Assembly (NCBI GenBank): GCA_021791995.1 | Contig: JAJYVN010000002.1 | Span: forward strand, 1-47,644 | Reading direction: 5' to 3' | DNA: 47,644 bases | Origin: Bacillota bacterium | GTDB lineage: Bacteria > Bacillota > Sulfobacillia > RBS10-35 > JAJYVN01 | Shown here: in pieces, positions 12,799 through 39,534 of the stretch | Numbering within the stretch: the stretch's first letter is position 1 | Layout: the number at the start of each line of letters is the position of its first letter | Notes under the pieces: model-generated | What the model was told of the DNA's origin: nothing | Seen by the model: the letters and a program-made list of their open reading frames with translations, nothing else | Databases searched by the model: none | Program-made: the position numbers and the translations under genes

Positions 12799-12847
12799 GC
12801 GTATGGTAGGCGATGGCCTACGGAGCTCAGCCACCCTGGACCGGCGT

Positions 12848-22940: not shown

Positions 22941-22946
22941 GGCCAA

Positions 22947-24310: not shown

Positions 24311-25240
24311 TCAGCCACCCGTCGTCGGTCGGCGCGTGAGCGCCAGCCCGACAGCCTGGAGCAGATCCACGCTGCGGTTCCCAGCCACGGCCTCCACCGT
24401 CAGCTTGTCCACCCGCCACACGTCCTCCCGAATGAACATCGCCGGGAACAAGAGCAGGCTGGCCGCGGCTTCCTTCGCCAGGTTGTAGACGCTCTCCGAG
24501 TAGCCCTGGGTGTTCCCGAGCACATCGACGGAGAACAACACCTTGGGCTCTCGGGCGAAGCTCGCCTCCCAGACCCGCCCGTCGAAGTAGCGCTTGTACT
24601 TCGTCATCCGGTCATGGACGTCGCCGGGCCGCAGTGACCGCTCATGCTCCACCAACACAGCCGTGCCATTCCCGAACAGGAGCGCGGCATCCGGGCTGAC
24701 CTCAAGCCTCTGGCCGCCCACAGCCATCGGGTGAACTCGCTGCACCAGCCGCTTAGAGCCCCGCCAATCCACCGGCACTCCCGCACGCGCAGCGTGCCGG
24801 ATCACGGTCGTTGCCAGGTCGGCAATCGCCAACTGGTGAACGACGTTGTTCCGCGTACCAAACGCGGCATACGGAGGGTCCCAGTCCGGTTCTGCCGCCA
24901 ACGCGACCACGTTGCCATTCAGCACCAGCACCTCGAACCCGAGGCGAGTCAGGCCGTACACCCACGCGCTGGCCCGCCCCTCTGCAACGTCTTCTCGACA
25001 CCGGGCCAGCAGGCCGTGCATGTACAGCCGCAACAGCCTCTTGTTGGCCACGGCAATGCTCTGCTCAAACGGCAAGTGCCGCCGACCCAGGAAGGAGTGC
25101 TCAAGGAGCATGGCTAGCCCCTCAAGATCCCGCTCGGTAACCCAAAACTCCCCGGTCCCTCGGATCAACTCCCCGGCCTGGTGGGTTACGTCGGCGGTCT
25201 CCCACATCGGCCACACCCGCTGCCCCTTGCGCACCAGCAC
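24311..25240 (-). CDS. Replication-relaxation family protein (about 309 aa)
   Basis: wHTH-like N-terminus (VTERDLEGLAMLLEHSFLGRRHL...ANKRLLRLYMHGLLAR...VYGLTRLGFEVL), then NNVVHQLAIADL and PDAALLF blocks as I remember for PF13814. I chose GTG 25240, 4 nt after GGAGGAGG. ATG 25354 would translate the TGGCGCCA array (repeated KVLAPD). Confidence 0.7.
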   Translation of the reverse strand: MLVRKGQRVWPMWETADVTHQAGELIRGTGEFWVTERDLEGLAMLLEHSFLGRRHLPFEQSIAVANKRLLRLYMHGLLARCREDVAEGRASAWVYGLTRLGFEVLVLNGNVVALAAEPDWDPPYAAFGTRNNVVHQLAIADLATTVIRHAARAGVPVDWRGSKRLVQRVHPMAVGGQRLEVSPDAALLFGNGTAVLVEHERSLRPGDVHDRMTKYKRYFDGRVWEASFAREPKVLFSVDVLGNTQGYSESVYNLAKEAAASLLLFPAMFIREDVWRVDKLTVEAVAGNRSVDLLQAVGLALTRRPTTGG

Positions 25241-25279
25241 TTTTCCTCCTCCACACCAGACGCAGCTTCGGTAGACGTC

Positions 25280-25429
25280 TGGCGCCAGCACTTTTCCGCG
25301 TCCTGACGCGGAGAACGCAGCCTTCAACCGGCGATCTGGCGCCAAAACGGTCATGGCGCCAGGGCCTATGCGCCTCGTGAAGCGGAAAATCGCTGACGCC
25401 AAACCCCAACCGGCGCCAAATTGGCGTCT
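25280..25429. repeat. TGGCGCCA palindrome array A (3 perfect and 3 degenerate copies, one 24-bp composite unit)
   Basis: Perfect copies at 25280, 25337 and 25354. Degenerate copies at 25394, 25411 and 25422. The composite unit TGGCGCCAgcacTTTTCCGCGTCC is at 25280-25303. Confidence 0.85.
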
Positions 25430-25495
25430 GGTTCGCCGCGCCCTCATATCGCCAACCAACGGCGAGGGGGCGGCCCCTGCGACCGCCCCCTCGTA

Positions 25496-28400
25496 CTACC
25501 TTGCAGCCTTGACCGGCTCCGCCATGAGCGCCACCAGCTCGTCGACGCTGGCCACCTCCGGATGCTCCTGGTAGGTGTCCGCCGCATCCGACACGTCGAC
25601 CTTACGCGCGACGAGCTCCTGCCGGAGTTCGTTTACGCCCTTATGCAGCTTCGTTGCCAAAGGCCGAAGGATCCGGTCCTCCCGCTTCAAGCCGGCGACA
25701 CGTCGTACCCGAGTCAGCGCCTGATTGGCCAGCATGTTGTTCGTGTTCAAGGCCCACTGACAGGCACCGATCAAGTCCTCGTCGCTCGCCCCGACCTGCG
25801 CCGCCGCCTGCACCAACCGTGCGGGCGTCATCGCGAACCGCAGGCAGAACATCTTACGGGGATCGTGCTCCCTCCAGGAGTCTGGCCCCGTCGACGTCTT
25901 CTGCCCCGTGCTCGCCTTGGCGGTACTGTCGGCGATCGGCGAAGCCGCGAGGGCCGCCGCCCGCGGCGCGTCACCCGAGGCGGACGGCGCGTCACTCAAC
26001 ATAGCCACGTCGGGGCGCCGCCCCTTCTTCGTCGGCTTCACCCGGTACATTTCCGCGTCTGCACGGCCGACCGTGTCAGCAAGGAGTTCGCCGGGCTTCT
26101 GAAGCGCCACGCCAACACTGGCAGGGACAAGCGACTCGTCCAACTCGCGACGGATGCGCTCCAGCCACGAGTCAAGACCCTCCTCCGGCATTCCCCGAGC
26201 CAGGATGGCGAACTCGTCGCCGCCGATCCGCGCCGCGATGTCCCGCTGCCGTGTAACCCGGCCGATCGCCTCGCCCGCCCGGCGAATGAGCCTATCGCCC
26301 GCCGCATGACCACCGTGGTTGTTGACCCCCGTGAGGTCGTTCAGGTCGATAAAAGCCACTGCGTTCTGCCCGTCGGGCGCAGTCTCCACCGCGCGCTCCC
26401 ACACACGGCGGTTGAACAGCCCCGTCAGTTCGTCCCGCCCTTGGTCCAGCAGCCGCTGCACAACGTCCTCTCCCAAAACCAGAGACGCCAGATCGGGGCC
26501 CACCTCTGCGCTCCGCTTGGTGGAACCGACGCCTGCCGGGAGTTCGGCAGAGGGCTTGGGCGCGTCAATCTCCAGCGCGCCCGCCTGGGTGTTGGGGGCG
26601 GCCAACTGCTCAGGAGCAAGGTCGATGATCAGTTCCACTTCCTCGTCCGCCACGGTCATCACTTCCTCCTCCGCGTCGCCTCGACGCGCAAGCAGTGTCT
26701 GCGTCTCAAGGTGCGCCTGGCGCCAGTCCTCCCGGTAGAACCTCTCCCAGTTGATCGTCTTGGCGTAGAAAGCCGGCTGGATGGCACCGTTCACCATCCA
26801 CTGGCAGATCGACGTGAACTTCGGCAGGCGGATGATATCGTCCACTCCCAGGTTGATCGCGTCCTGGCTCTCCGCATTCACCTGGACGGCGTTCGCCCAC
26901 GTGCGCATGAAGCGCTGCATGAAGTCCTTGGCCTCATCAAGAAGCTGGAACTGGTGGACGATCACGTTCTGGATGAGCTGGCGAAGCCCGGCGACGACCC
27001 TCTCGCTCTCGATCTCCGCCAGGAACCGAATGGCCAAGGTCACCTGCAGGCCGTACGCTCGGCCCTCGGCGAGCATGTTGAGGAACCCTTCCGACAGGTA
27101 GTTCTGGGCTTCGTCCAGGATCAAGCTCACGCGGACGCGCTCACGCTCCTCGATCTCGTTCTGGGCCTGCATGGCGTACCACAGCAGGGTCACCACGAAG
27201 ATGCCCAGGAGACGCACTCCGGCGTCCCCCAGGCGTGACTTGTCCAAGTTGACGATGAGCACGTCCCGGTCCTTGATGATCTTTCGGAAGTCGAGTTGGC
27301 GCCGGCCGTTACCGGCCTCAAGCGCCTGCCGCACGAGCCGGTTCCGCAAGAGCTCGTCCAGCTTGTTGCGTGGCGCTGCCAACCCCTCTTCAAGGAACCG
27401 TTGGTTGCCCTGCATGGCCTGTATGAACGTCCGCTGCCAGTAGTCCTTGAGGTGGTCGTCCCTCACGTGTTGGATCACCCGGTTGCGAAACTCCCCATCC
27501 GTGAGGATCTCGTACACCTTGGTGAAATCGGCGTCTGGGCCCAGCACTTCCTTGACCGCACCGATGGCGTTGCCAAGGAACTCACGGCTCCGAAACTGGA
27601 TGGCCTGGTCGCCGAAGACCTCCTGCATGGCGTTCAGCACGTTCTCCTGCATCACGTCATCGTTGATCGACGCTTGCAGCGGATTGATCGTCCACGGGCA
27701 GTCCGGCATGCCGGGTGCGAAGTAGACCACGCTTCGGTCCGGCGGCACCATGCCCAGCGCTCGCTTCGAGGTGTCCTTGCCGATGTCGATGAGCACGACG
27801 CACTTCGGCTGGCCCTGCGCATCCCGGTAGTACACGTCCGAGCGGAACAAGGAGAGCTCGTCCGTCGTCTTGCCAGAGCCCTGGGCTCCCACGAGTAGGA
27901 CGCCTGCCTCACGGTCTCCCTCGGGCACCACGAGTCGGTCGTCGCTCTCCTGGTCCAGCACCATCGCCCTGGCGTCCTCCGCAACCCGCGGAATGGAGCG
28001 CGGCGCCGGCGCCCGGCGCACGTAGTACCGGACGAGCGTATTCACCCGCAGCCGGTTGGTCGGCAGGTGGATGATGGTCGCCAGCGGGAACGAAAACATG
28101 ATCGACGGCCGGAAGGCGATGAGGCTCGGAAGCCTTGAGTAGAACCACTCCACCCAGGCCGAGCGAAACGCCCACACCGTCGTAGCCCGGAACGTGTTTT
28201 CGCCATCGGCCTCACACAGAGCGCCGTAGACCCTCTGGACCGTCTCCCAGTTCTCAGCGCCGAGCCGGATCTCCACGCGAAACGCCTTCTTGCCGTACAG
28301 TTGCAGGCTGTCCTTGACCGCCTGCGACTCCGCGTACCCCACGCCAGGAGCGGCCGGATCGACCTGCTGCACAGCCTTTGCCGAGTGCTCCATGCCCCTG

Positions 28401-29161
28401 ATCTCGTTGCGGAGCCGGGTGTGCAACTGCTCCGACGGCAACGGGGTCAGGTGGAACTGCAAGTGGGCGGCCCCATCCGCACGGTCCAGGCTCTGCACCA
28501 CCGTCTCCACGACGCTGTTCTGATAGTCCTTCACGGTCTCCGTAGCGTGGCGCCAGTGCTTGGACAACACGATTTGCTGAGTAACCGGCCACCGAACGAA
28601 CTCGTCGGTCCACGGCCGAAACCTGATATTCGTGTACTTGGAACGGAACGTGTCCTCGAGCACCCTCAGCCAGTCCTGCTGGTAGCTGGGGGCGGACAGC
28701 AGGAAGTGGATCATGTGGTCCTGCGTGCGCACGATCTCGAAGGTGAAGAAGTCCTGGCCCACTCCGCTACGCACGTAGCGCGTCAGCATCTGGCCATGGA
28801 TGGCGTCCAAGGCCGACATGATCTCGTACGGCTCCGCTGTGTCGTTCGGACCCAGGATGATCTCGTCCACCCTGACCGACCGTGCTCGCATACGTCGCCG
28901 CATGAGGCGTATCACCAAGGCCGACGCCAACGCCAGAGCCACAACCGCGCCAAGAGCCAATCCAAGCAAGAGCGCGAGATGCCCGACGTCTACTTGCACG
29001 CGCGCCGCCACGTGGGCTGTCGGCGTGCGTACCAGCCGTGGGCTCTTCACGCGCGCGGTGACGTGTCGCCAGAGCCAAACGACGCCCGCCACCAGGCCGG
29101 CAACCCAGATCAGAACCGTGGCCTCGCTGCCCGACGACCCCCTTCGGTCCGAACCGTCCAC
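25496..29161 (-). CDS. Type IV coupling-protein-like membrane ATPase fused to a GGDEF diguanylate cyclase domain (1221 aa)
   Basis: GTG 29161 follows TAAGGGGGT. There are two N-terminal hydrophobic helices. Walker A is VGAQGSGKTT (aa 424-433) and Walker B is SLILDEAQ (aa 679-686). The GGDEF domain spans aa ~905-1045 (DNA ~26027-26449), with RIGGDEFAIL and RQRD (RxxD) five residues upstream. The last ~175 aa are unassigned. Confidence 0.8.
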   Translation of the reverse strand: MDGSDRRGSSGSEATVLIWVAGLVAGVVWLWRHVTARVKSPRLVRTPTAHVAARVQVDVGHLALLLGLALGAVVALALASALVIRLMRRRMRARSVRVDEIILGPNDTAEPYEIMSALDAIHGQMLTRYVRSGVGQDFFTFEIVRTQDHMIHFLLSAPSYQQDWLRVLEDTFRSKYTNIRFRPWTDEFVRWPVTQQIVLSKHWRHATETVKDYQNSVVETVVQSLDRADGAAHLQFHLTPLPSEQLHTRLRNEIRGMEHSAKAVQQVDPAAPGVGYAESQAVKDSLQLYGKKAFRVEIRLGAENWETVQRVYGALCEADGENTFRATTVWAFRSAWVEWFYSRLPSLIAFRPSIMFSFPLATIIHLPTNRLRVNTLVRYYVRRAPAPRSIPRVAEDARAMVLDQESDDRLVVPEGDREAGVLLVGAQGSGKTTDELSLFRSDVYYRDAQGQPKCVVLIDIGKDTSKRALGMVPPDRSVVYFAPGMPDCPWTINPLQASINDDVMQENVLNAMQEVFGDQAIQFRSREFLGNAIGAVKEVLGPDADFTKVYEILTDGEFRNRVIQHVRDDHLKDYWQRTFIQAMQGNQRFLEEGLAAPRNKLDELLRNRLVRQALEAGNGRRQLDFRKIIKDRDVLIVNLDKSRLGDAGVRLLGIFVVTLLWYAMQAQNEIEERERVRVSLILDEAQNYLSEGFLNMLAEGRAYGLQVTLAIRFLAEIESERVVAGLRQLIQNVIVHQFQLLDEAKDFMQRFMRTWANAVQVNAESQDAINLGVDDIIRLPKFTSICQWMVNGAIQPAFYAKTINWERFYREDWRQAHLETQTLLARRGDAEEEVMTVADEEVELIIDLAPEQLAAPNTQAGALEIDAPKPSAELPAGVGSTKRSAEVGPDLASLVLGEDVVQRLLDQGRDELTGLFNRRVWERAVETAPDGQNAVAFIDLNDLTGVNNHGGHAAGDRLIRRAGEAIGRVTRQRDIAARIGGDEFAILARGMPEEGLDSWLERIRRELDESLVPASVGVALQKPGELLADTVGRADAEMYRVKPTKKGRRPDVAMLSDAPSASGDAPRAAALAASPIADSTAKASTGQKTSTGPDSWREHDPRKMFCLRFAMTPARLVQAAAQVGASDEDLIGACQWALNTNNMLANQALTRVRRVAGLKREDRILRPLATKLHKGVNELRQELVARKVDVSDAADTYQEHPEVASVDELVALMAEPVKAAR

Positions 29162-29173: not shown

Positions 29174-29677
29174 TTAGGCGCCAGGAACATCGATCTCCAG
29201 GCGGTCTCCCTCCACGAGTTGGACCAAGGGTGCAAGCGGTCGTCCCTGGCCAGGCCGTCGCGCCAGGTCTTCAGCCTTTACACCTATCGCAGCCGGGAAC
29301 GCCTCGTTGGCGACTGAGGAAGACCCGTGCGAGGCAGGCGGCTGATCTGGCCCCTCGTCCAGACTCGCACCCACTGGCGCTGTGTCGTCAGGAACCACCG
29401 GTGCACGCTCCTCAAGCGCGGCCCAGACGTGGTCGATCCGACCCGACAGCTCGTCCGTCCGGTGGTCGATCTCTGCCCTGAGCACCGCTTCGAGGGCTGA
29501 AATGCGCGAGTTGTAGTCCATCCACCTCGCGGCCTCGATACCGGCACGCCTCAACGCCTCAGCCCTGCCCACGCGCCAGCGGGCGCAGAGCAGATCCACG
29601 GCCTCAAGCTCCTCACCTTCGAGTCGCACGTTGACACGTGTGGTCGTCCCCGTCCCAGTTTCAGTCTCCGGCGTCAT
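29174..29677 (-). CDS. Ribbon-helix-helix DNA-binding protein (167 aa)
   Basis: ATG 29677 follows GGAGGGAAGG. The RHH core is TRVNVRLEGEELEAVDLLCARWRVGRAEALRRAGIEAA. The gene is directly upstream of the coupling-protein gene. Confidence 0.7.
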   Translation of the reverse strand: MTPETETGTGTTTRVNVRLEGEELEAVDLLCARWRVGRAEALRRAGIEAARWMDYNSRISALEAVLRAEIDHRTDELSGRIDHVWAALEERAPVVPDDTAPVGASLDEGPDQPPASHGSSSVANEAFPAAIGVKAEDLARRPGQGRPLAPLVQLVEGDRLEIDVPGA

Positions 29678-29704
29678 GCCTTCCCTCCGATCCAAGCGAA
29701 GCCT

Positions 29705-30081
29705 TGGCGCCACGGGTTTGGCCCGTAACCGCACGGAAAACAGGTCACCAGACGAGGGACTGGGCGCCAACCAAGCCGTGGCGCCAGGAGTTTTCCGCGC
29801 CACTACGCGGAAAATCGGTGGCGCCAAAGCCAGTCTGGCGCCAATTCGGCGCCTGGCGTCTCGACCGGATGTTGCGCAGCCCTTCGGGATGCCTCTGGTA
29901 CACGCACCCGGCTCAAGCGCTCACGACGCCGTGGCGCCAGGCGTTTTGCGCGTCACGGCGCTGAAATCCGGCACTCGGAGGAGCATCCTGGCGCCAGTTC
30001 ACCCCTGGCGCCACGAGTTTTCCGCGCCATGAAGCCAAAAACTCTAGGCGCCAGACTTCTTTTGGCGCCAGATTGGCGCCT
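29705..30081. repeat. TGGCGCCA palindrome array B (8 perfect and 5 one-mismatch copies; three 24-bp composite units)
   Basis: Perfect copies at 29705, 29779, 29819, 29836, 29932, 29989, 30006 and 30063. Variants at 29762, 29847, 29853, 30046 and 30074. Composite units at 29779-29802, 29932-29955 and 30006-30029. An inverted repeat TTTTCCGCG-N6-CGCGGAAAA is at 29791-29814. Confidence 0.9.
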
Positions 30082-30086
30082 CCGCC

Positions 30087-30443
30087 TCAGTCCTCGTCCG
30101 CTCCGCCGAAAGCCCCCAAAAGCCCGCCAGCCACCTGTGTCATGTCGACTCCTAGTGTAGACGGCGTACCCCGGTCTCCGACCTGCCCCTCGAACCGTCG
30201 CTGTTGGGCCAGGGCAATGACCAGCGTCTCCAAATGGTCAAGGCGGTCAAGCACCAGCCCCTGCCCGTCGAGAGCCAGCAAAGCTGCCTCCACCACACGG
30301 GTCCGGGTACCCAGCCGCCTCGCCAGCCGATCCAGAATGGCCATCGCCCGCACATCCAGGCGAATGGACACGTGAGTCCGCACACCATCAGAAGCCTGGC
30401 GCGACAAGCCTTTCACCCCCGCCAAGAGGTTCTCTCGTAACAC
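30087..30443 (-). CDS. Ribbon-helix-helix protein, ParR-like by position (up to 118 aa)
   Basis: RHH core HVSIRLDVRAMAILDRLARRLGTRTRVVEAALLAL, immediately downstream of parM. The start is uncertain because several in-frame GTGs lack a good RBS. Confidence 0.55.
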   Translation of the reverse strand: MLRENLLAGVKGLSRQASDGVRTHVSIRLDVRAMAILDRLARRLGTRTRVVEAALLALDGQGLVLDRLDHLETLVIALAQQRRFEGQVGDRGTPSTLGVDMTQVAGGLLGAFGGADED

Positions 30444-30543: not shown

Positions 30544-31560
30544 CTACGCGGGTGCCGTCGACCTGGAAGCCGCGAGCATCGCCGCGTACCCCCGGGCGTT
30601 GGCGCCCGCGGCCTCCTCCAGCAACTCAGCGCTCTCAAACGCCCCGGCGAGGTGTGGGTACAGCAACACGCCGCCCCCACCGACGACAAGGACCGTGGAC
30701 ACCTGATTGAAGGCGGAGCCCCACGCCTCCTTGAGCCTGCCGGCGATTTCCGCGGCCAGATCGCCGCTCGTAGAGCGAACGCGCTCGTCCACATCTACCT
30801 TTCGGCCGCGTACGGACAGCGGCCGCGAGTCCAGCACCGCCTGCTCCACCTCGCTTGGGTCGAGCATCGTAGAGGTCTCGTGCGAAATCTCCTGAGCCAC
30901 CGTCGCGTAGACACGCTCGACGCCGATGTCGAGGCTCCCGCTCACGCGCTCGTCCGGTCTCGCCAGGCGCTCGCCGGGAGCGAGACGGAGAAGCATGTGG
31001 TCCGTCGTGCGATAGCCGACGTCCACAACGGCGCACGGCTCAAGCGCCAAGTCCGGCCTACGGCTCACCGCGGCAAAGTACGCCGCTGCCGACTGGGGAA
31101 ACACCCGCACGGTGCCAATCCGGATAGGAACGAGAGGGCCGTCGTCCACGCTCACCATCATCTGCGCGCCAGCAAGACGCCCCCGCAGCTCTCGCCGCTC
31201 GGCCACGGCGGTGTACAGGCTCAGCGGCAGACCCACGGCCAAGGAGACGTCACCGGAGACGTCCAGGAGACGCAGCGCGGTAAAGACCAACTGAACGTAG
31301 TCCTGCCGCCTGGCGGCTTGCGCGTCCCACGTACGGGCGCCTCCGGCAAAGAGCGCGGCACTGCCCACGAGGGCTGTGTCCGCTTGCGCCAAGGCGCCAT
31401 CGCTCAGAACCAGTCGGTGCGGTAGCGACCGGCCGCCCAACGCGGCAGTCAGCTCGCCACCGGTCCGCCCGCGTACCACGACGCTAGGGAAGGAGACCCG
31501 GAGGCCGTCTTCCCGAGCCGCCTTCGTGTACCCGTACCCCACATCTACCCCAACAATCAC
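30544..31560 (-). CDS. parM: ParM/StbA-family actin-like segregation ATPase (338 aa)
   Basis: Starts MIVGVDVGYGYTKAA (phosphate-1 loop), with a later VVDVGYRTTD block. The GTG start overlaps the EAL gene stop (GTGA). Confidence 0.8.
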   Translation of the reverse strand: MIVGVDVGYGYTKAAREDGLRVSFPSVVVRGRTGGELTAALGGRSLPHRLVLSDGALAQADTALVGSAALFAGGARTWDAQAARRQDYVQLVFTALRLLDVSGDVSLAVGLPLSLYTAVAERRELRGRLAGAQMMVSVDDGPLVPIRIGTVRVFPQSAAAYFAAVSRRPDLALEPCAVVDVGYRTTDHMLLRLAPGERLARPDERVSGSLDIGVERVYATVAQEISHETSTMLDPSEVEQAVLDSRPLSVRGRKVDVDERVRSTSGDLAAEIAGRLKEAWGSAFNQVSTVLVVGGGGVLLYPHLAGAFESAELLEEAAGANARGYAAMLAASRSTAPA

Positions 31561-32255
31561 GCGCGCCGCCTCCCCTTACCAATCACCGGCTTACCGAACA
31601 GATACCCCTGGCCGAAGGGAACGCCGATCCGCCGGAGGGTGGCCGCCTCCCCGGCGACTTCCACGCCTTCCGCGATCAGGTGCGCGCCAATGTCCGAAGC
31701 GTATTGCGCAAGCACCCCGAGCATCGCGGCCTTCTGCGGATCACGGTGACACCCGTCGACGATGGACCGATCTACCTTGATGTAGGCAGGGTGCATCCTC
31801 ACAAGCGCCCCCAAGTTGGCCTGACCGGAACCTACATCGTCCACCGCGTAGGAAATCCCCGCCTCTTCGAGACCGTGCACAAGGCTGTCCGGAATCCGGG
31901 CGGCTTCGCTCAATTCGACCACGACCCGTTCGTGGTGCCTCCACCGGTCCACGACGCCAGCCGAGCGTGGATCGGCGTTCACGAACAACAGCCCATCGGT
32001 CCTGGGCAGGTCGGCGCACAGCTGCGCCACCAAGTCCTCCAGCGACTCGAGAACCCCAGTTCGCGTCGCTTCGCTCCACAGATCCGTCGGGTCCAACTCC
32101 GGGTGGCGCTCGATCCGGAACAGAGCCTCGTGACCGATGACGACCTTCGAGTCGAGGTTGATGATCGGCTGAAGAGCCATGCGCGATCGGAGCCTGCCGT
32201 TGAGAACGGCGTACAACATACCGGCAATCTCCAAAGAAGCCATCCTAGACGCCAT
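31557..32255 (-). CDS. EAL-domain c-di-GMP phosphodiesterase, stand-alone (232 aa)
   Basis: Signature blocks are intact: GHEALFRI, LFVNADP, VVELSEA, YAVDDVGSG, IKVDRS, IAEGVE, GQGYLFGKP. I prefer ATG 32255, 5 nt after AGGGGGAAG (the track start is 32294). Confidence 0.85.
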   Translation of the reverse strand: MASRMASLEIAGMLYAVLNGRLRSRMALQPIINLDSKVVIGHEALFRIERHPELDPTDLWSEATRTGVLESLEDLVAQLCADLPRTDGLLFVNADPRSAGVVDRWRHHERVVVELSEAARIPDSLVHGLEEAGISYAVDDVGSGQANLGALVRMHPAYIKVDRSIVDGCHRDPQKAAMLGVLAQYASDIGAHLIAEGVEVAGEAATLRRIGVPFGQGYLFGKPVIGKGRRRA

Positions 32256-32499
32256 CGTCGCTTCCCCCTGCCGTGGCGAACTCCCAACGTACAACCCCGA
32301 ACCGGATCACCCGGAACCAAGCCGAGAGGCGCACCGGCTGCTGGTCGGCCCAGCGCGGTGTCGAAGTGCCATGCACGATCACCCGGCCAGACGTCATGCC
32401 ACGCGCAACGGCGACCCGTCGTGCCGCGACTTGCGGATCCTCGGTCCCAACACGGATCTCTACGTCTCCCTCGGACTCGCTCAGCGTCGCGGCCCTCAT
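32245..32499 (-). CDS. Hypothetical protein (84 aa)
   Basis: ATG 32499 is 8 nt after TGGAGG. The gene overlaps the EAL start by 11 nt. No motif recognised. Confidence 0.45.
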   Translation of the reverse strand: MRAATLSESEGDVEIRVGTEDPQVAARRVAVARGMTSGRVIVHGTSTPRWADQQPVRLSAWFRVIRFGVVRWEFATAGGSDDGV

Positions 32500-32732
32500 T
32501 GCTACCGCCTCCAGTTCATGCGCACAAAAAGGGGCGCGGCTCTTCACCACGCCCGAGACGTCAGATCGTACCGCACAACCACGCTTCGGCCGGCTAGCAA
32601 ACGCGGGACCCCGGTTGGCCGGCCTCAAGAATTGCGCTCAGGACGCCGCTTCGGGCCTGCGCGTGCATTGTGGGTGGCTATGGGCAGCTCTGGTTTCCAA
32701 GGCCGTCCGAGCAGCGACGGTGCGGCCGGTGT

Positions 32733-33998
32733 CTAGGTACTCGCTGTATTTCGCACAGACCGGTGTGCGCGCAGTGAGATGGTCACGACCAAACTTGACC
32801 CAAGGAGGACCGCAGCCAGGATGAAGAAAGCGCCGCGCGGTGCAAGCACAGCCGATGCCCAGCCCACGGCGAGCCCTCCTAGGGCGTAGCCGCCGTCGCG
32901 CCACATTCGGTAGACCCCGAGTGCCGTAGCACGCCACGCCGGCTCAGTCGCATCGCTAACCGCGGCTAGGAGAACCGGATAGACCAGAGATGTGCCAAGC
33001 CCCATAGCCATGGCGGCGGCGAGCCAGGCGGCCGTGCTGTGTGCGAACCCGGCACCGGCGAGTCCCGCCGCGTTGAGTACCAGTCCCCCGACGATGGGGT
33101 GCTTCCGCCCGATGTGATCGCTCAAGACTCCAGTGCCCAGTTGCGCGACCCCCCAGGTCGCGGCATACAACCCGGCGACAAGCCCGATCGCTGCGGATCC
33201 AAATCCCTGGCGAGCCATAACCAGTGGCACGAGAGCCCACATGGCGGTATCGCTAAACTTGTTCAACATGCCTGCCTGATTGCAGGCAAACAACCTGCGA
33301 TCCGCCCACGTGACCCTCCAGAAGATGTGGCCAAGCGTTGGTACGGCTAGCGCTCCAGTGATTCCAGTTTCCCTTCCCTCCAATCGCGCGAACGGCAGAG
33401 TCTCCCGGATGAATATCAGGGGAATGAGCAGGCCCGCCACCGTGTATGCGGCAGCCAATAGGAGTGGTGTAGGCCGAAGTCCGAAGCGGGCGGCAAGAAG
33501 GCCGCTGACCGCCGTGGCCATCGCCACCCCCAAGTAGCCGGTAAACTCGTTGATACCCAGGGCCAAGCCGCGGTGGTTGGGACCGACGAGATCGATCTTG
33601 CTGGTAACCGTCATCGACCATGCGAGGCCCTGGTTGGCGCCGAGGAGCAAATTGGCCACCACCACAAGCCACCAACCGGACGCGAAGATGAGCAGCCAGG
33701 GAACCGGAAGGCCCAGGATCCAGCCCGCGATGAGCACCGGCCGCCGGCCGAATCGATCAGCCAGACGGCCGGCCACCAGATTGAGTGGGCCCTTGACCGC
33801 TCCGAAGGCAACGATGAACGACAGGAGCACGACCAGAGAGCTGACGTGGAAGACCTGCCTACCGAGCAGCGGTACCAGCGTACGCTCGCTGCCGATGAGC
33901 ATACCCACGAAGGCGTTATCGACCGCAAGCAAGACGAATTGCCCGAAGTTCTCTCGCAGCCCGAGTCGTGGCGCCCTGATCGGGCGTGCCAAGGACAC
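32733..33998 (-). CDS. MFS transporter (about 421 aa)
   Basis: About 12 hydrophobic segments and the MFS loop motif GRLADRFGRRPVL. I prefer GTG 33998, 5 nt after GGAGGTGA (the track uses TTG 34013). Confidence 0.85.
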   Translation of the reverse strand: MSLARPIRAPRLGLRENFGQFVLLAVDNAFVGMLIGSERTLVPLLGRQVFHVSSLVVLLSFIVAFGAVKGPLNLVAGRLADRFGRRPVLIAGWILGLPVPWLLIFASGWWLVVVANLLLGANQGLAWSMTVTSKIDLVGPNHRGLALGINEFTGYLGVAMATAVSGLLAARFGLRPTPLLLAAAYTVAGLLIPLIFIRETLPFARLEGRETGITGALAVPTLGHIFWRVTWADRRLFACNQAGMLNKFSDTAMWALVPLVMARQGFGSAAIGLVAGLYAATWGVAQLGTGVLSDHIGRKHPIVGGLVLNAAGLAGAGFAHSTAAWLAAAMAMGLGTSLVYPVLLAAVSDATEPAWRATALGVYRMWRDGGYALGGLAVGWASAVLAPRGAFFILAAVLLGSSLVVTISLRAHRSVRNTAST

Positions 33999-34094
33999 CT
34001 CGCTCACCTCCAAATGGCAGCAGGCCGACTCCCCCTACGCCCCCTGGCGGGGAGAGCGGCCCGCAGCATCTTTCCCCCGGTTGGCGACGCGGTG

Positions 34095-34544
34095 TTAGCC
34101 CCTGCTGGTCAACGCCAACTCGGAGAAGTAGGCAGTGAAGGCACATACGAAGCCCACGGCCATGACAAGCGACGCGCCGTTTTGCTGCCCACCCATGAGG
34201 AAGGAGACGCCGCCGTACCCGGCGACCAGGACGAACACGAGGCCCGTTGCTGCCAGCGGCAAGGCCACCGCCCGCATCGGGGACGACGAAGCCGCGACGA
34301 CCTGGACGATGCCAAGAGGTACCAGCGCCATGCCCAGAAGCATGTGGACCCAGAGCGCCGGATCGAAGGCAACCGCCATCATGCCCCCCATCCCGGGCAT
34401 CATGCCAGCCGAGCCGCCACCGAAGTTGAGCTTTGGCACCGTCACGTACAGGTTGATGTACATGCCTAGTACAAACTGGGTGAGCAGCGCACTGATCATT
34501 ACCACGGCCGTCAGTCTCGCCGGAACGGCTGCCGCCACAGGCAC
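34095..34544 (-). CDS. Small integral membrane protein (about 149 aa)
   Basis: Four hydrophobic helices and a Gly/Met-rich loop (GGGSAGMMPGMGGMM). The long track ORF overlaps the SQR-like gene. The start is near GTG 34544 or ATG 34499. Confidence 0.55.
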   Translation of the reverse strand: MPVAAAVPARLTAVVMISALLTQFVLGMYINLYVTVPKLNFGGGSAGMMPGMGGMMAVAFDPALWVHMLLGMALVPLGIVQVVAASSSPMRAVALPLAATGLVFVLVAGYGGVSFLMGGQQNGASLVMAVGFVCAFTAYFSELALTSRG

Positions 34545-34650
34545 TACCGGTCCCCCCCAACCCTTACCGTTCCCGATGTCCCTCCTGGTGAACGTGCCGG
34601 CGTTGGGCAATAACTCGTGCCTGCGTGCTACCCAACCACCTTGGCGATGG

Positions 34651-35805
34651 TCAGAAGTACCGTTGCCACCAGGCACGTTCGAACGCGACCTTGGCCGCGT
34701 GCCAGTGGCGTCCAGGCCGGTACAAGCGCACATCGGGCCTCGGCTCCGCGTAGAAATTCCCTCGCGCAAAGGCGGCCACCCCACCGCCGAGTTCGAGGAA
34801 ACACTCGCCGTGCCCGGTAAAGGTTCGCTCCGCACCCTGGCCCAACAAGCGGGCGGCAACAGTATGCGCGACGGCTTCGGCCTGCGCGTGGGCAAACACG
34901 CCCGCCTTGGGCAAGGGCTTACCCATCACGAGCGGGATGCCCGTGGCGTCGCCGATAGCGAACACGTTCGAGTGGGGCGTTTCGCAGGTTGCGCGATCGA
35001 CCGTCACCCATCCTCCCTCTGGCGCCAACCCAGCCTCTTGTAGCACGGTCGGCACCCGGTGGGGCGGAACCGCCGCCAGTAGGCTGTAGTCGGCCTCCTC
35101 GCCCGACTCGAATCGCAACCGCTGACTGGCAGGATCCACCGACAGCACGCGCTCGTTCGGACGGTAGGCAATCTCGCGGGCGGCCATCAGGTCCACGACG
35201 GCACCGGACACCGTCGGACCTGCTACCGCCATCGGAGCGGCCTCCGCCGCGTAGACAGCAACCTCGACCGACTGGCGCAGGTGGTGCTTGCGCAAATAGT
35301 GATCGATCAGAAACGCTGCTTCATAGGGCGCCGCAGGGCACTTGAACGGGGTCTGGGCGATCAACACGACGATGCGACCTCCCCGGACGCCCTGCAAGGC
35401 AGCGTAGAGGCGCTCGGCTCCGTCGGTGGTGAAGAAGTTGAAGCCCGACTCGGCGAGCCCTGATACGTGTTCTGGGACCAGCTCCGCTCCCAAGGCGATG
35501 ACCACGGCGTCTGCGCAGATGGTACGATCACCGACCACGACGGCCCTCTCACTCGGGTCGATGGCCGCAATCGTCCCCTGAACCACCTCGATGCCCCGCC
35601 GTTCAAGGGGCGCGAAGTCGCGTGCCACGTCCTTGGCCTTGCGGGTTCCGGTCATGAGCCACAGGAGCGAAGGCCAAAAGACGTGGTGACCTGAGCGCTC
35701 TATCAAGATCACGCGGTGCTCGGCGGGCAGGAGCTTTCGAAGCTCCGTGGCCGCCACCACGCCGCCGATACCGCCCCCCAGCACCAAGACCGTGCGCACT
35801 GCCAT
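34651..35805 (-). CDS. FAD-dependent pyridine nucleotide-disulfide oxidoreductase, sulfide:quinone oxidoreductase-like (384 aa)
   Basis: Rossmann N-terminus VLVLGGGIGGVVAATEL. ATG follows GGGAAGGGAG. Context is DsrE-like and ArsR-rhodanese genes. Confidence 0.75.
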   Translation of the reverse strand: MAVRTVLVLGGGIGGVVAATELRKLLPAEHRVILIERSGHHVFWPSLLWLMTGTRKAKDVARDFAPLERRGIEVVQGTIAAIDPSERAVVVGDRTICADAVVIALGAELVPEHVSGLAESGFNFFTTDGAERLYAALQGVRGGRIVVLIAQTPFKCPAAPYEAAFLIDHYLRKHHLRQSVEVAVYAAEAAPMAVAGPTVSGAVVDLMAAREIAYRPNERVLSVDPASQRLRFESGEEADYSLLAAVPPHRVPTVLQEAGLAPEGGWVTVDRATCETPHSNVFAIGDATGIPLVMGKPLPKAGVFAHAQAEAVAHTVAARLLGQGAERTFTGHGECFLELGGGVAAFARGNFYAEPRPDVRLYRPGRHWHAAKVAFERAWWQRYF

Positions 35806-35837
35806 CGCTTACGCTCCCTTCCCAGTAGCCCAACGGG

Positions 35838-36188
35838 TCAGTACACGACGACTCGGTCGGCCCAAAGGGTCCAGTCGGTCAGCTCCTCCATGGAGCTGCG
35901 ATGTACGCCATCTGCAAGCTCCGACTCGGCTAGGCCACGGGCGTCCATGCAACTCCCGCAAGCCCCGACGGTGCTTCCGCGGCGGACCGCCACCTGGAGC
36001 ATGCGTTCCAGGTTGTAGTAACCGTTCGGGGTCTTCTGGCCCTCCTTGGCACACAGGGTCGCATCCGCCATGAGGAAGATCCGCACCGTCACGCCCTCTC
36101 TCTCAGCCAAGGCGTTGGCATGGCGCAAGCCGTTGTAGGAGCGCTCTGTGCCGTACGGCGGATCGTTCAGGATGACGAGAACATTCAT
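35838..36188 (-). CDS. DsrE/DsrF/TusD-like sulfur-relay protein (116 aa)
   Basis: Starts MNVLVILNDPPYGTERSYNGLRHANAL, with ...VGACGSCMDARG later. ATG follows AGGAGGGG. Confidence 0.7.
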   Translation of the reverse strand: MNVLVILNDPPYGTERSYNGLRHANALAEREGVTVRIFLMADATLCAKEGQKTPNGYYNLERMLQVAVRRGSTVGACGSCMDARGLAESELADGVHRSSMEELTDWTLWADRVVVY

Positions 36189-36223
36189 GGTCGCCCCTCC
36201 TGTCGAGTGGTATCTGCTGACGG

Positions 36224-36853
36224 CTAGGCTCCCCCTTCGGTCCCGGCGGCCACGGGAAGCCCAAGAACCCGCCAGTCGGTGATTCCATCCTCCAAACGCG
36301 TGGCACGCAACCCCCGTGCCCTGAGCCGCTCCACCGCCTCGATGGCAAGGACGCAGTAAGGGCCTCGGCAGTATGCCACGATCTCGCCGCCGGAAGAGAG
36401 CTCCGTCAAACGCTGCTCCAACTCAGGCAGAGGTACCGAACGCGCACCAGGGATGTGCCCCGCTAGGTACTCATCGTGGGGTCGGACGTCGATAACAGTG
36501 ACCGCGCCGTCCAGCACCTGTCGCCGGAGAGCGTCCCGATCCACCGGCACCATCCCCTCGCGGCCGGAGAGAAATCGCTGCGTGATGCGCTCCAGGTCCG
36601 GAAGGTAGTGCTCGGCGCACAAGCGCAGCCCGCGGAGAAAGTCTGGGACGGCTTCGTCCGCCACCTCATAGACGACGTAGGTGCCTTCCTTGTGGGACAT
36701 GACGAGCTTTGCCTCTCTAAGCGCCTTCAGGTGCTGAGAAGCGTTGGTCACGCTGAGGCCGGCCTCGGTGGCCAGTCGCTCGACGGTCTTGGGCGCTTGG
36801 CACAGGAGGTCCAGAAGTTCAAGTCGGTGCGGGTTCGAGAGCGCCTGGCCCAT
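36224..36853 (-). CDS. ArsR/SmtB-family regulator fused to a rhodanese domain (209 aa or slightly longer)
   Basis: HTH block LSNPHRLELLDLLCQAPKTVERLATEAGLSVTNASQHLKALREAKLV. Rhodanese block VIDVRPHDEYLAGHIPGARSVP...IVAYCRGPYC. The frame stays open upstream to a strong SD (GGGAGGGG, 36909-36916) with only ATT/ATA codons in frame, so the N-terminus may be longer. Confidence 0.8.
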   Translation of the reverse strand: MGQALSNPHRLELLDLLCQAPKTVERLATEAGLSVTNASQHLKALREAKLVMSHKEGTYVVYEVADEAVPDFLRGLRLCAEHYLPDLERITQRFLSGREGMVPVDRDALRRQVLDGAVTVIDVRPHDEYLAGHIPGARSVPLPELEQRLTELSSGGEIVAYCRGPYCVLAIEAVERLRARGLRATRLEDGITDWRVLGLPVAAGTEGGA

Positions 36854-36918
36854 TCGGCTGATCTGACCGTATACCTCGTTCTTAAACCGGCGGTGCGGTG
36901 TTATACGAATCCCCTCCC

Positions 36919-36960
36919 TTCTGTCTAATTCTATATACTTCCGTTCTGTCTTATTCTATA
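36919..36960. promoter_or_regulatory. AT-rich 17-bp direct repeat TTCTGTCT(A/T)ATTCTATA x2 (36919-36935, 36944-36960), candidate operator/promoter
   Basis: 16 of 17 positions are identical and the period is 25 bp. Each copy reads TATAGAAT on the coding strand (-10-like). It lies 66-107 bp upstream of the ArsR-rhodanese ATG. Confidence 0.5.
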
Positions 36961-37004
36961 AACTTTTGAACCCTCCTGCGCGGTCAAGGCATCACCGGGG
37001 GTTG

Positions 37005-37043
37005 ACAAATAAAGGGGCCGGGCTGCGCGCCGCACAGCCCGGC
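37005..37043 (-). terminator. Rho-independent terminator after the Met-rich lipoprotein gene
   Basis: The minus strand reads GCCGGGCTG-tgcggcgcg-CAGCCCGGC followed by CCCTTTATTTG. Confidence 0.65.
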
Positions 37044-37071
37044 GTGGCCCGTGGCCCGTGGCCCGTGGCCC
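37044..37071. repeat. Tandem heptamer (GTGGCCC)x4
   Basis: Four perfect head-to-tail copies between the lipoprotein stop and its terminator hairpin. Confidence 0.9.
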
Positions 37072-37087
37072 TCCTCGGTGTAAGCGC

Positions 37088-37651
37088 TTAGCCGCCCGAC
37101 GTTCCGGTCCTATTCCCTGCGGTGCCGGCCCCGGTCCCGGTCGGCGGGGTCCACGTTCCTTGTATAAACTGATCGATCTGCTTGCTCGCCTGCGCGATGA
37201 GCGCGGCCTTCAGCCCACTCACCGACTTGCCGTTCGCCTGCGCAATCTGCGCTAGGCTCCGCCCATTGCGCATGTCGGTCATGAGCTGCGTGGTGGAGAT
37301 GCCCAGGTAGCTGGCCGCAGCGCTCAGCATCGGCCGCATGGCTCCGCGCGCGCCCATGCCCATCCCCGTGCCGCCGCCCATGCCCATGTTGCTACCCATG
37401 GTCGTGCCACCGCCCATACCCGTGCCGTTTCCCATCGCCGTGCGGTTCCTCATGCCCATGCCGTTCCTCATGCCTTGGCCCATTCTCCCTGCCGCACCTT
37501 CGCCGCTCGGCCGACCCTGGGTACCGGGCATGCCTTGACCAGGGTTCTTCATTGGTGTGCCTGCGCCGCCGACCCCGCAACCAGCCACCCCAAAGACAAC
37601 AAGGGTGGATACCAATGCCGGAAGGAACCACCGACGCGTGCATATCGCCAT
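37088..37651 (-). CDS. Met/Gly-rich lipoprotein, possible Cu(I)-binding (187 aa)
   Basis: Signal peptide with a lipobox (LVVFGVAGC). About 90 aa of MG-rich repeats (GMRNGMGMRNRTAMGNGTGMGGGTTMGSNMGMGGGTGMGMG). ATG follows AGGGGAGGA. Confidence 0.75.
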   Translation of the reverse strand: MAICTRRWFLPALVSTLVVFGVAGCGVGGAGTPMKNPGQGMPGTQGRPSGEGAAGRMGQGMRNGMGMRNRTAMGNGTGMGGGTTMGSNMGMGGGTGMGMGARGAMRPMLSAAASYLGISTTQLMTDMRNGRSLAQIAQANGKSVSGLKAALIAQASKQIDQFIQGTWTPPTGTGAGTAGNRTGTSGG

Positions 37652-37777
37652 GATCGCGTCCTCCCCTGTTGAAGATCGGGCGTAGTTTCCCCGGATCCCT
37701 TAGGGTACGAACGCGAAGGCGGTTGCCAAATAGAGGCACCATCAAGTAAGGGTCGGTCCCCACCGGCAGGCTGACGC

Positions 37778-38125
37778 TCAACCGGCCAATTCGAAGCCCA
37801 CTTCGTTGCCAGCCGCCCGTGGTATGAACACCCAAGTCTCCGATGCCACAGCGCCCGAGGTAGCCACGAGCGGCCACACGAGAACCCGGCCACAGACGCT
37901 CGCCGCCAGCCGACCGCGGTTGCTGCGCCCATGGCGACCAAGAGCAGGACCTCTAGCGGGCCCACGGCGTTGGTAAAGAACGACTCGGTGACCATCATCT
38001 CCTGGCCCAGGAAGTCGCGGCAGATGACCGGGTTGAAGGCGCCCTAGAGGACGGAACATGCGGTGGTCAAGCACGTTGTTGAGACGAAGGGCTAATTCCT
38101 TGGACAAGTGAGGGCCGTACTGGAC
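37778..38125 (-). pseudogene. Internal fragment of a ccmF paralog with frameshifts
   Basis: FNPVICRDFLGQEMMVTESFFTNAVGPLEVLLLVAMGAATAVGWRRA aligns by eye with FPIVSRDFLGQEMTVTESFFTSAVGPFATLILVTMGMSTAIGWRRT of the ccmF gene at 45617+. The flanking pieces (SKELALRLNN; RVLVWPLVA) are in another frame. No N- or C-terminal parts are present. Confidence 0.7.
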
Positions 38126-38138
38126 ACCAGACTTGCAT

Positions 38139-39323
38139 TCACACGATACCCTTGCTACGTCGACCCTTGCGCAGGCCCTCCTCGCGTGTATGCGCCAGAG
38201 CGTTTGCCAGCAACGACTTGACCGACAAAACGCCGGCGTACTCCCAGAGAATCCGGCCCTGGGGCGAGACAAGGGCCATGGTCGGCAGTTCGGTCACCCC
38301 AAAACGATCGAACACGGCACCGGTGTTGTCGAGGGCCACCGGGTAGTTGATCTTGTGAGATATGAGATAGGAGCGGACGGCCGACGTGGACGGCTCCGTC
38401 AGTCTGAGGTCGACGGCAACCAGGGGCGGCAAGCTAGGATAGGAATGCTGGCGTCGGACGTAGGCCTGTAGTGTTGAAATCTCCGTCTGGCACGCGTGGC
38501 ACCAGGTGGCGAAGAAGTCGACCAGTGTGGCCTTTCCCTCGGGAACCGCCACCTGCGCGGGACGCCCACCCACGAGCCCGCTCAGGCGGAAGGCCACGTT
38601 TTGGGGCACCGGACCCGGATGAGCGTTGACCAGACGGGTGCCAGGATTGGGCAGTTTCGCCGGCTCGTCCAGAGAGCGCGACACATACTCCGCGAGGACG
38701 TACGCCTGGTCAGGGATGTTGCGTCGGGCACCAGTCGTCAGGAACACCCGGACCCCGCGCCCGTGCGGGTCGATCACGAAGATGCCCGGCGTATGGGTCA
38801 CCTGTCCCCGGATCACATCCGCCTGGATGCCATACGCCTGCCAAATCGGTCGTAGCTGCGACACAGGGCCTGTCAGAAAGAGCCAGCGGTGCAGCATGCC
38901 GTGCTGAATCGACCATCGGCGAACATCCGTGACGGAAGTCGCGGCCGGGTTCGAGTTGACGGCCACCAACTGAACCCGATCAGCAGCGGGTCCCAGAAGG
39001 CGTATCGCATCGACCAGGGTCTGAGCGGTGAGGGGACAGACGGTCGTGCAGCGGCTGTCGATGAATGCGAGGACCACGGTCTTGCCTCGCAGGCCGCTGA
39101 GGGTGATCAGGCGGCCGAACTGATCCCACAACCGGAAGTTCGCCGCAGGGCGGTTTCCCAAAGATGCGCCCGGGTCGACCCCGTACCGCGCTCCCGGTAC
39201 CGTGATCGGCCCTTGGCCAAGACTGTCCGTGCTGTGCCAAAGACCGATGCCGGCTGTTACGGTGAGTGTCACGGCAACGGCCCCAAGGACCCACCGGAGA
39301 TCACGCCTTGGCCTTGGGTCCAC
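38139..39323 (-). CDS. SCO1/SenC-like domain fused to a TlpA/ResA-like thioredoxin domain, membrane-anchored (394 aa)
   Basis: The SCO motif is FIDSRCTTVCP with a downstream VTHTPGIFVIDPHG. The second domain has ATLVDFFATWCHACQ (WCxxC). There is an N-terminal TM helix. GTG follows GGGGGGAG. Confidence 0.8.
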   Translation of the reverse strand: MDPRPRRDLRWVLGAVAVTLTVTAGIGLWHSTDSLGQGPITVPGARYGVDPGASLGNRPAANFRLWDQFGRLITLSGLRGKTVVLAFIDSRCTTVCPLTAQTLVDAIRLLGPAADRVQLVAVNSNPAATSVTDVRRWSIQHGMLHRWLFLTGPVSQLRPIWQAYGIQADVIRGQVTHTPGIFVIDPHGRGVRVFLTTGARRNIPDQAYVLAEYVSRSLDEPAKLPNPGTRLVNAHPGPVPQNVAFRLSGLVGGRPAQVAVPEGKATLVDFFATWCHACQTEISTLQAYVRRQHSYPSLPPLVAVDLRLTEPSTSAVRSYLISHKINYPVALDNTGAVFDRFGVTELPTMALVSPQGRILWEYAGVLSVKSLLANALAHTREEGLRKGRRSKGIV

Positions 39324-39534
39324 GAGGCTCCCCCCAGTCCTGGTGTGGGCTTACCAAGTCGAGACTTTCAGCCATCCGGATCCCCGTACGATACTTGGCC
39401 GCCCCCGTTCTGACGCCGTCTATGACCAAAGTGGGGCAAGCGGCGCCGATGCACTCTATCGAGCCGCATCCGACGAGACGGCTCTCTCACAGCCTTCCCG
39501 CAGCGGACGAGTGCCCGCCTCCGGCCATGGTCAC

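Follow-up and report, generated by a model that had tools for sequence, protein, structure and literature searches.

A conserved orf84-EAL-ParM gene unit on a conjugation-related element of thermophilic Bacillota, and the recurrence of c-di-GMP phosphodiesterase genes beside ParM-like genes

We analyzed a 47,644-nt contig of a Bacillota bacterium (JAJYVN010000002.1, positions 1 to 47,644, from assembly GCA_021791995.1), hereafter called the window. It contains a conserved unit of four genes, which encode a small protein (Orf84), a stand-alone EAL protein predicted to be a phosphodiesterase for cyclic di-GMP (c-di-GMP), a ParM-like actin and a small candidate ribbon-helix-helix (RHH) protein. 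The mobile element that carries the unit is related to conjugative elements and belongs to thermophilic, high-GC Bacillota, and the 47.6-kb contig ends without overlap in a circularity test. ParM systems are textbook minimal DNA-segregation machines, thought to need only ParM, ParR and parC.

All genes of the unit lie on the minus strand and follow one another in the transcription order orf84, EAL, ParM-like, 118-aa open reading frame (ORF); their positions are given in Table 1. The four genes are tightly packed, overlap at two junctions and keep their order in diverged relatives. Because the arrangement recurs in such relatives, it is more than chance. At the first junction, orf84 and the EAL gene overlap by 11 nt at the EAL ATG (ATGGCGTCTAG), which bears out an earlier reading of this DNA (the original prediction) that an 84-aa ORF runs over the EAL start. 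At the second, the EAL TGA and the ParM GTG share the GTGA at 31557-31560, with AAGGGGAGG just upstream. This overlap had also been predicted, and it is present on the minus strand, the coordinates being plus-strand positions. A 100-nt gap separates the ParM-like gene from the 118-aa gene. GGAGG stands 9 nt ahead of the orf84 ATG, and purine-rich stretches resembling Shine-Dalgarno sequences precede all three starts inspected (orf84, EAL and ParM). The ORF lister extends the EAL gene to a TTG at 32294 (245 aa); the entry in the public protein collection (P0001) is 232 aa long.

The EAL protein matched Pfam PF00563 with E = 4.8e-34 and 118.2 bits, against a cut-off of 31.3. Its motifs are EALFR (E43, R47), N93, ELSE (E114, E117), DDVGSG (D139, D140), KVD (K160), EGVE (E196) and QGY (Q216). 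In a family alignment of 50 sequences, the columns of E43, L45, R47, N93, E114, E117, D139, D140, G142, G144, K160, E196, Q216 and G217 are invariant or nearly so, and the window EAL has all of these residues. We modeled the protein with AlphaFold2 (AF2) on the same alignment and obtained an EAL TIM-barrel-like fold with a mean predicted local distance difference test (pLDDT) score of 93. The best Foldseek matches were Bd1971, PA0575, TBD1265, MucR, MorA, YahA and RocR, with template modeling (TM) scores of 0.73-0.85 on the query (0.76-0.85 for the first six) and E-values against solved EAL phosphodiesterases down to 7e-19. The claim of the original prediction that every signature block was intact was right for the catalytic residues, which are all kept, and not for loop 6, which reads DDVGSGQAN where DDFG(T/A)GYSS is canonical. 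We predicted that the EAL protein is catalytically competent; activity as a phosphodiesterase is likely, not assured.

The ParM-like protein matched the Pfam families ALP_N (E = 2.4e-20) and MreB-like_C (E = 3.8e-22). A profile made from it and 11 homologues matched pCBH ParM of Clostridium botulinum (6izr/6ixw) with E = 1.2e-46, and also Ta0583, chromosomal Dh-cParM1, CorM and pSK41 ParM, with R1 ParM more weakly. The phosphate-binding and GGG motifs are invariant in the family (D6, G8, G10, K13, D180, G182, T185 and G294-G296). Relatives bear the NCBI names 'ParM/StbA family protein' and 'diguanylate cyclase'. In genomes, the nearest ParM relatives are found in hot-spring Bacillota metagenome-assembled genomes (MAGs) and one Chloroflexota MAG, at 40-44% identity.

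The other two proteins of the unit are small. A gene does follow ParM at the place where an RHH ParR-like gene had been reported, and a small gene occupies the position of the 118-aa gene in L009, L010, L012, L013 and L174 (loci of relatives are designated by L numbers), with relatives of 86-111 aa; the RHH assignment itself is weak, since the RHH_1 match (E = 0.0027, 18.1 bits) falls under the Pfam cut-off of 20.5. For Orf84, only four relatives were found among 1.8 billion representative proteins. Copies 44-61% identical stand at the same position in L010, L001/L002 and L006, which with the window makes four lineages. Orf84 had no Pfam or NCBIfam match, and no PilZ motifs were found by eye. 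Its AF2 model, built with no alignment, was poor (pLDDT 64) and gave no fold match in Foldseek.

We then compared the pairing of EAL and ParM among relatives. The EAL protein has four close relatives in a collection of 5.8 billion proteins, at 50-67% identity, all of them stand-alone and about 230 aa long. Every relative whose ParM is 56-79% identical to that of the window has an EAL directly upstream. In L009 (ParM 79%) and L012 (56%), it is the C-terminus of an EAL that precedes ParM; L010/L011 (64%) has an 84-aa ORF and then a 249-aa EAL before ParM, and L001/L002 (62%) has an orf84-like gene (50% identical) and then an EAL (57%). L006 contains only the N-terminus of ParM, preceded by an EAL that is 67% identical and whose stop overlaps the ParM ATG. 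Overlap of start and stop codons at the phosphodiesterase-ParM junction was found in the window, in L006 and in L133, where the enzyme is of the HD-GYP type described below.

The EAL gene might instead have landed beside ParM by chance or recently, with no functional link between the two. L013 would suit this explanation, having a DUF2325/coiled-coil gene in the EAL slot, as would L007 and L008, which are clade members away from ParM. The pairing is, however, kept down to 56% ParM identity with overlapping codons, and independent pairings with HD-GYP and with a second EAL lineage exist. Nor is the EAL gene absent from related par operons, the outcome that the original prediction had named as telling against it; it is kept in all relatives across the 56-79% range. 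We consider a fortuitous adjacency to be scarcely credible. L007 and L008 had been tried as chromosomal outgroups, a role that was dropped because both nest inside the ParM-linked EAL group in a neighbor-joining (NJ) tree without support values. Next to the L007 EAL is a convergent ORF whose translation, inspected by eye, resembles IspF. The L013 slot (8783-9982) encodes a 399-aa coiled-coil protein with a sub-threshold DUF2325 match.

To survey the surroundings of this ParM subfamily more widely, we collected 160 loci of ParM relatives from genome and metagenome contigs, namely the best 80 of 172 and the best 80 of 210 confirmed matches, and scanned their six-frame ORFs with hidden Markov models (HMMs) built for this analysis. 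The scan for HD-GYP, a phosphodiesterase fold unrelated to EAL, was unplanned and was prompted by the annotation of L174; neighbor scans with Pfam, blind to the domain sought, were run afterwards as a check. An EAL or HD-GYP ORF lies within 900 bp of ParM in 21 of the 151 unique loci, always on the ParM strand. These make up 21 of the 30 phosphodiesterase ORFs in 1.68 Mb, and only 9 lie in the remaining 1.32 Mb of flanks. Among the immediate upstream same-strand neighbors (n = 117, 58 Pfam families), HD_5 (8) and EAL (7) are the commonest, followed by MobL relaxase (6), YdjM (4) and GGDEF (2). The commonest large downstream neighbors (n = 83) are the VirD4-type type IV coupling protein (T4CP; 9), topoisomerase III (4) and EAL (4), and relaxases are also common there. 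The statement of the original prediction that ParMRC operons normally lack signaling enzymes fails for this ParM subfamily, whose commonest immediate upstream neighbors are EAL and HD-GYP. Taken together, a stand-alone phosphodiesterase of either of two unrelated folds recurs as an immediate same-strand neighbor of ParM in Bacillota conjugation modules.

HD-GYP is encoded directly upstream of ParM in L026, L031/L123, L036, L037, L048/L140, L053, L119 and L133; in L173, L066 and L106 it lies farther upstream, at 1.0-1.4 kb. These loci share a backbone in the order Ig-domain protein, HD-GYP, ParM, small gene, HTH_36, topoisomerase III and VirD4. Five Moorella/Neomoorella loci have the same backbone with an EAL placed after ParM, about 500 bp downstream and behind an 85-aa gene. 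In L142/L145, an EAL lies directly upstream of ParM, which in L145 is the HD-GYP slot. Since L142/L145 fall inside the HD-GYP clade of the ParM NJ tree, this looks like EAL replacing HD-GYP in place. In the EAL NJ tree, the window clade stands apart from the Moorella and L145 EALs. The latter group weakly together, and we therefore dropped a count of three independent EAL recruitments. The sequences thus suggest three arrangements and at least two lineages of EAL, in addition to HD-GYP. In L142 (9070-9851) and L060 (3328-4089), the EAL next to ParM is broken into two ORFs, by a frameshift in a pseudogene or by an assembly error. Behind the EAL of the Moorella ParM-EAL loci comes a gene resembling 5'-nucleotidases of the NT5C/LNS2 type (L032, 12570-13223; 2-4 of the 83 downstream neighbors), whose product could process the nucleotides released when c-di-GMP is degraded.

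These proteins could also be sensors rather than enzymes. The EAL, or a degenerate HD-GYP, would then be mainly a c-di-GMP receptor or trigger that binds ParM, Orf84 or the RHH protein and relays the c-di-GMP state of the host, with hydrolysis secondary. Loop 6 is non-canonical in all ParM-linked EALs (DDVG(A/P)DIGQ in Moorella), translational coupling fits a stoichiometric complex, and Orf84, always co-encoded, would be an orphan partner. In L174, a 202-aa HD_5/HD protein encoded at 10794-11402 keeps HHERWDGRGYP and has RDVGK for HDxGK, that is, RD for HD; it may be a degenerate, receptor-type HD-GYP. On the other hand, the metal-binding and catalytic residues are kept in every ParM-linked EAL, and 11 of the 17 HD-GYP ORFs contain the full HHExxDGxGYP, most of them with HDxGK too. 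Conservation of the catalytic motifs in both folds points to selection on catalysis, and a sensor role in place of the enzymatic one seems rather improbable to us.

A predicted source of c-di-GMP lies on the same element. The gene that encodes it begins 2.4 kb from the EAL stop and specifies a membrane-anchored P-loop ATPase resembling a T4CP, with a GGDEF domain before its C-terminal tail. The GGDEF domain matched PF00990 with E = 2.5e-23 (83 bits vs. 23.8) and TIGR00254 with 76 bits vs. 37.4. The RIGGDEF motif is intact, and RQRD, an RxxD site, is read in the translation five residues upstream. The domain is apparently an intact diguanylate cyclase, in agreement with the prediction that the element carries one maker and one breaker of c-di-GMP. 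The T4CP domains PF02534, PF10412 and PF12696 found no match in the ATPase, and SXT_TraD reached 26.6 bits against a cut-off of 366. Its translation shows a hydrophobic N-terminus, GAQGSGKT and LILDEAQ, and the next gene encodes a relaxase-like protein of the Replic_Relax family. A GGDEF-less relative in Sulfobacillus, 48% identical, is named as a type IV secretion system (T4SS) conjugative DNA transfer protein.

The nearest long relative of the backbone is the 22-kb contig L013 (ParM 46% identical), in the order VirB4-like gene, ParM, small gene, 166-aa gene, 1042-aa ATPase and Replic_Relax. It has no EAL, and its ATPase has no GGDEF. Aligned with the L013 protein, the window ATPase shows 66% identity over aa 63-821 and once more in the tail. 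Because this identity flanks it on both sides, the GGDEF region (aa ~890-1050) is an insertion. Over its full length, the window ATPase is 57% identical to the GGDEF-bearing protein of L014 (the same locus as L174; ParM 44% identical), where the HD-GYP-like gene follows the T4CP::GGDEF gene in place of EAL. Of 35 database entries for the ATPase, one is the window protein; among the other 34, 22 contain PF00990 (at least 22 clusters). A GGDEF-bearing ATPase gene also lies directly upstream of ParM in L022/L175 and in L109, the latter in the order HD-GYP, T4CP::GGDEF, ParM. A second lineage probably has the complete layout of the window, as tiled from contigs of different samples and not on one contig: L096 (orf, EAL and the ParM N-terminus) and L095 are 100% identical over their 179-bp overlap, and L095 runs through ParM, a 93-aa gene, an RHH2-like gene and the ATPase, whose DNA is 93% identical to that of the GGDEF-bearing L176/L177.

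Two arrays of the palindrome TGGCGCCA flank the ATPase gene. The window has 14 exact sites, where 1.7 are expected; in all 100 shuffles the count stayed below 14. Array A takes up the 409-bp stretch that separates the 118-aa gene from the gene of a second weak RHH protein (167 aa), with the eight exact copies at 29705-30070 (366 bp). The RHH_1 match of the 167-aa protein is under the cut-off (E = 8.6e-4), and that of its L009 orthologue has E = 5.6e-6. Array B follows the stop of the T4CP-like gene and lies upstream of the relaxase start. We reset the relaxase start to the GTG at 25240 from an alignment of homologues, and Replic_Relax is found at the same position in L013, L174 and L175. A GGCGCC-rich array lies at the same place in L009, the closest relative with this region. 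L095, L010, L012 and L013 lack the TGGCGCCA array at that position, so it is specific to a sublineage. Array A is a candidate parC-like centromere, operator of the RHH2-T4CP operon, or both; a parC that follows parR is reported for Cb-cParCMR (PMC12270681). Given their place ahead of the RHH2-T4CP operon and the relaxase gene, the arrays could equally be operators or belong to an origin of transfer (oriT). A single DNA-binding protein may serve the T4CP operon as well as the relaxase gene; alternatively, array B may be an oriT.

Table 1. Positions of the features discussed, in window coordinates
Feature	Position	Strand	Description
Terminator-like hairpin and T-run	32532..32554	-	Between the MFS gene and orf84
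orf84 (84 aa)	32245..32499	-	First gene of the unit; small conserved protein
EAL gene (232 aa, ATG start)	31557..32255	-	Stand-alone EAL; predicted c-di-GMP phosphodiesterase
ParM-like gene (338 aa, GTG start)	30544..31560	-	Pfam ALP_N and MreB-like_C
118-aa gene	30087..30443	-	Candidate ParR-like RHH; sub-threshold RHH_1
Array A	29678..30086		8 exact TGGCGCCA palindromes and near copies within 55-nt repeats
Second weak RHH protein (167 aa)	29174..29677	-	Immediately precedes the T4CP-like gene; gene call follows L003
T4CP-like ATPase (1221 aa)	25496..29161	-	Membrane-anchored P-loop ATPase with GGDEF before C-terminal tail
GGDEF domain (aa 909-1047 of the T4CP-like protein)	26021..26437	-	Pfam and NCBIfam GGDEF
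Array B	25241..25495		3 exact TGGCGCCA and two near copies; GC hairpin after the T4CP stop
Replic_Relax family relaxase-like protein	24311..25240	-	PF13814, E = 4.4e-13

Outside the operon, the window contains no genes for a T4SS channel. The plasmid collection yielded no close DNA relatives of the window, and in the protein search only generic EALs at up to 36% identity. The sigma-70 promoter scan predicted no promoter. The terminator-like hairpin upstream of orf84 may mark the upstream operon boundary; this boundary evidence is weak, the 4 terminator-like sites being not above shuffled sequence (2.6 expected). Just upstream of the operon and on the same strand lies sulfur and redox cargo (32733-41139 and 45617-47614), with a major facilitator superfamily (MFS) transporter, an FCSD/SQR-type (sulfide-dehydrogenase-type) flavoprotein, DsrE, an ArsR-rhodanese protein and a CcmF-like gene, together with two SCO1/AhpC-type proteins, one of which has a sulfocyanin domain. 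This cargo suggests an acidophilic or sulfur-oxidizing host. Inside the cargo region is an IS21-family pair (41450-43518), istA with rve and Mu-transposase C-terminal domains, and istB. Immediately beyond the relaxase region come a HipA_C kinase-like gene and then a HIRAN-domain gene (21351-22946); the pair may be a toxin-like or DNA-damage module. Further genes downstream of the relaxase encode a SLOG protein, DUF6744 and a large helicase, and the element also has a bpMoxR AAA ATPase and VWA pair and a diverged DnaN-like sliding clamp (7757-10331 and 11638-12993).

Since the element is conjugation-related, the phosphodiesterase might serve in counter-defense, destroying cyclic-dinucleotide immune signals in recipients during establishment, for example those of c-di-GMP-activated STING-type effectors of cyclic-oligonucleotide-based anti-phage signaling systems (CBASS). 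Some HD-GYP enzymes also degrade cyclic GMP-AMP (cGAMP), which would agree with such a role. The gene is fixed beside ParM, however, and not in a leading region, and the same element is predicted to make c-di-GMP through its GGDEF domain. PADLOC found no match among the operon proteins except a weak similarity of the T4CP-like protein to HerA-type ATPases, which is weak evidence because its library covers defense systems and not counter-defense proteins. Overall, we regard counter-defense as very unlikely.

The explanation we tentatively favor, which falls a little short of an even chance, is an element-borne c-di-GMP circuit tied to ParM and the transfer machinery. The element would run its own c-di-GMP circuit, with the cyclase tethered to the DNA-transfer ATPase and the phosphodiesterase produced in fixed proportion with the actin-like segregation motor; if so, c-di-GMP would feed the DNA-handling machinery of the element, as an input to the ParM filament, the ParR-like adaptor or the transfer apparatus. 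The phosphodiesterase would keep c-di-GMP low, or reset it, where ParM works, either by bulk hydrolysis or as a trigger enzyme touching ParM or Orf84. One of the two RHH proteins probably binds the TGGCGCCA arrays that precede the T4CP operon and the relaxase gene, and such binding would tie the output of the par operon to the expression of the transfer genes. A stronger form of this proposal is unlikely in our judgment. It holds that c-di-GMP from the coupling-protein cyclase directly controls the actin-like segregation motor by binding ParM, its adaptor or Orf84, and switches between segregation and transfer, that the co-translated EAL or HD-GYP resets the signal, and that such a local circuit is widespread in Bacillota.

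The main rival is manipulation of the host. Here the phosphodiesterase and GGDEF would be cargo that shifts the c-di-GMP pool of the host, and with it motility, pili, aggregation or biofilm, in favor of the spread or retention of the element, and the slot in the par operon would provide only steady, autoregulated, copy-number-linked expression. Stand-alone enzymes without a sensor domain would be suited to altering the pool constitutively. In most loci with a phosphodiesterase, no cyclase is encoded nearby and the enzyme must therefore act on c-di-GMP made by the host, and Pfam and Rfam scans of the window found no c-di-GMP receptor on the element. Diguanylate cyclases with an effect on biofilm are established on mobile elements, the SXT/R391 integrative and conjugative elements (ICEs). 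Ordinary cargo would be expected to scatter, however, whereas 21 of the 30 phosphodiesterase ORFs crowd within 900 bp of ParM on its strand. One slot is moreover taken by two unrelated folds, the junctions in the window, L006 and L133 have overlapping start and stop codons, and the cyclase is part of the T4CP polypeptide, not a free enzyme. We see host manipulation as possible, if on the unlikely side.

Several observations weigh against the element-borne circuit. The Pfam and Rfam scans found neither a c-di-GMP receptor domain, of the PilZ type or other, nor a riboswitch in the window; Rfam gave no match over the whole window or in a permissive scan of the orf84 leader, so there is no c-di-GMP riboswitch in either. 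Loop 6 matters for dimerization and activity in model EAL enzymes, and its non-canonical form in the window EAL means that activity or regulation may differ from theirs. L007 and L008 belong to the EAL clade of the window and have no ParM after the EAL. EAL and GGDEF stand on one contig only in the window, and L014, L022 and L109 have GGDEF without EAL. About 85% of the related ParM loci have no phosphodiesterase neighbor, so that the function of ParM does not require one. The naive binomial p-value for the clustering of phosphodiesterase ORFs near ParM, 2e-8, is indicative only, because the 900-bp threshold was picked after seeing the data and the loci are phylogenetically non-independent, with near-duplicates among them (L001/L002, L142/L145 and the five Moorella loci). 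The trees are NJ trees without support values, and the loci are limited to the best 80 per collection.

The component families are known, and each has likenesses elsewhere. SXT/R391 DgcK and DgcL are c-di-GMP enzymes on conjugative elements too, and they are free cargo enzymes, unlike the window cyclase, which is inserted in a coupling-protein-like ATPase, and the phosphodiesterase, which is fixed beside ParM. The EAL domains of YahA/PdeL, PA3825, TBD1265 and Bd1971 share the fold and the catalytic residue set of the window EAL, which differs in having no sensor or DNA-binding domain, in its shorter length (232 aa), in loop 6 and in its place inside a partition and conjugation module. The HD-GYP-ParM pairs (Peptococcaceae, Desulfotomaculum-type and Syntrophomonadaceae) likewise place a phosphodiesterase gene just ahead of a ParM gene of this subfamily and on its strand, in a conjugation backbone; they differ in the unrelated HD-GYP fold, a VirD4-type T4CP without GGDEF and the lack of orf84. 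As in type II ParMRC (pCBH ParM and the cParMR systems of PMC12270681), an actin-like ATPase gene is followed by a small candidate DNA-binding gene, and a palindromic repeat array comes after the parR-like gene, as in Cb-cParCMR (PMC12270681). The window departs from ParMRC in two extra genes, orf84 and EAL, which come before parM and are translationally coupled, and in its weak RHH assignment. Its array also forms the region ahead of the T4CP operon, and a second array precedes the relaxase gene. A phosphodiesterase partner is not mentioned for the cParMR systems (PMC12270681). The literature searched held nothing relevant on ParM or actin-like proteins with EAL, HD-GYP or c-di-GMP, nor on a coupling protein with GGDEF, and we found no paper that describes the phosphodiesterase-ParM pairing or the T4CP::GGDEF insertion.

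The recurrent partnership of ParM with a phosphodiesterase, together with the coupling-protein cyclase, suggests an undescribed regulatory input to ParM systems. If this input acts on the machinery of the element, it would link second-messenger signaling to the inheritance and transfer of plasmids and ICEs in Gram-positives and add a new class of c-di-GMP target, for which four small genes and a repeat array would make a simple test system. If only host behavior is tuned, the unit would be a clear case of a host-manipulation enzyme hard-wired into the maintenance operon of a mobile element.

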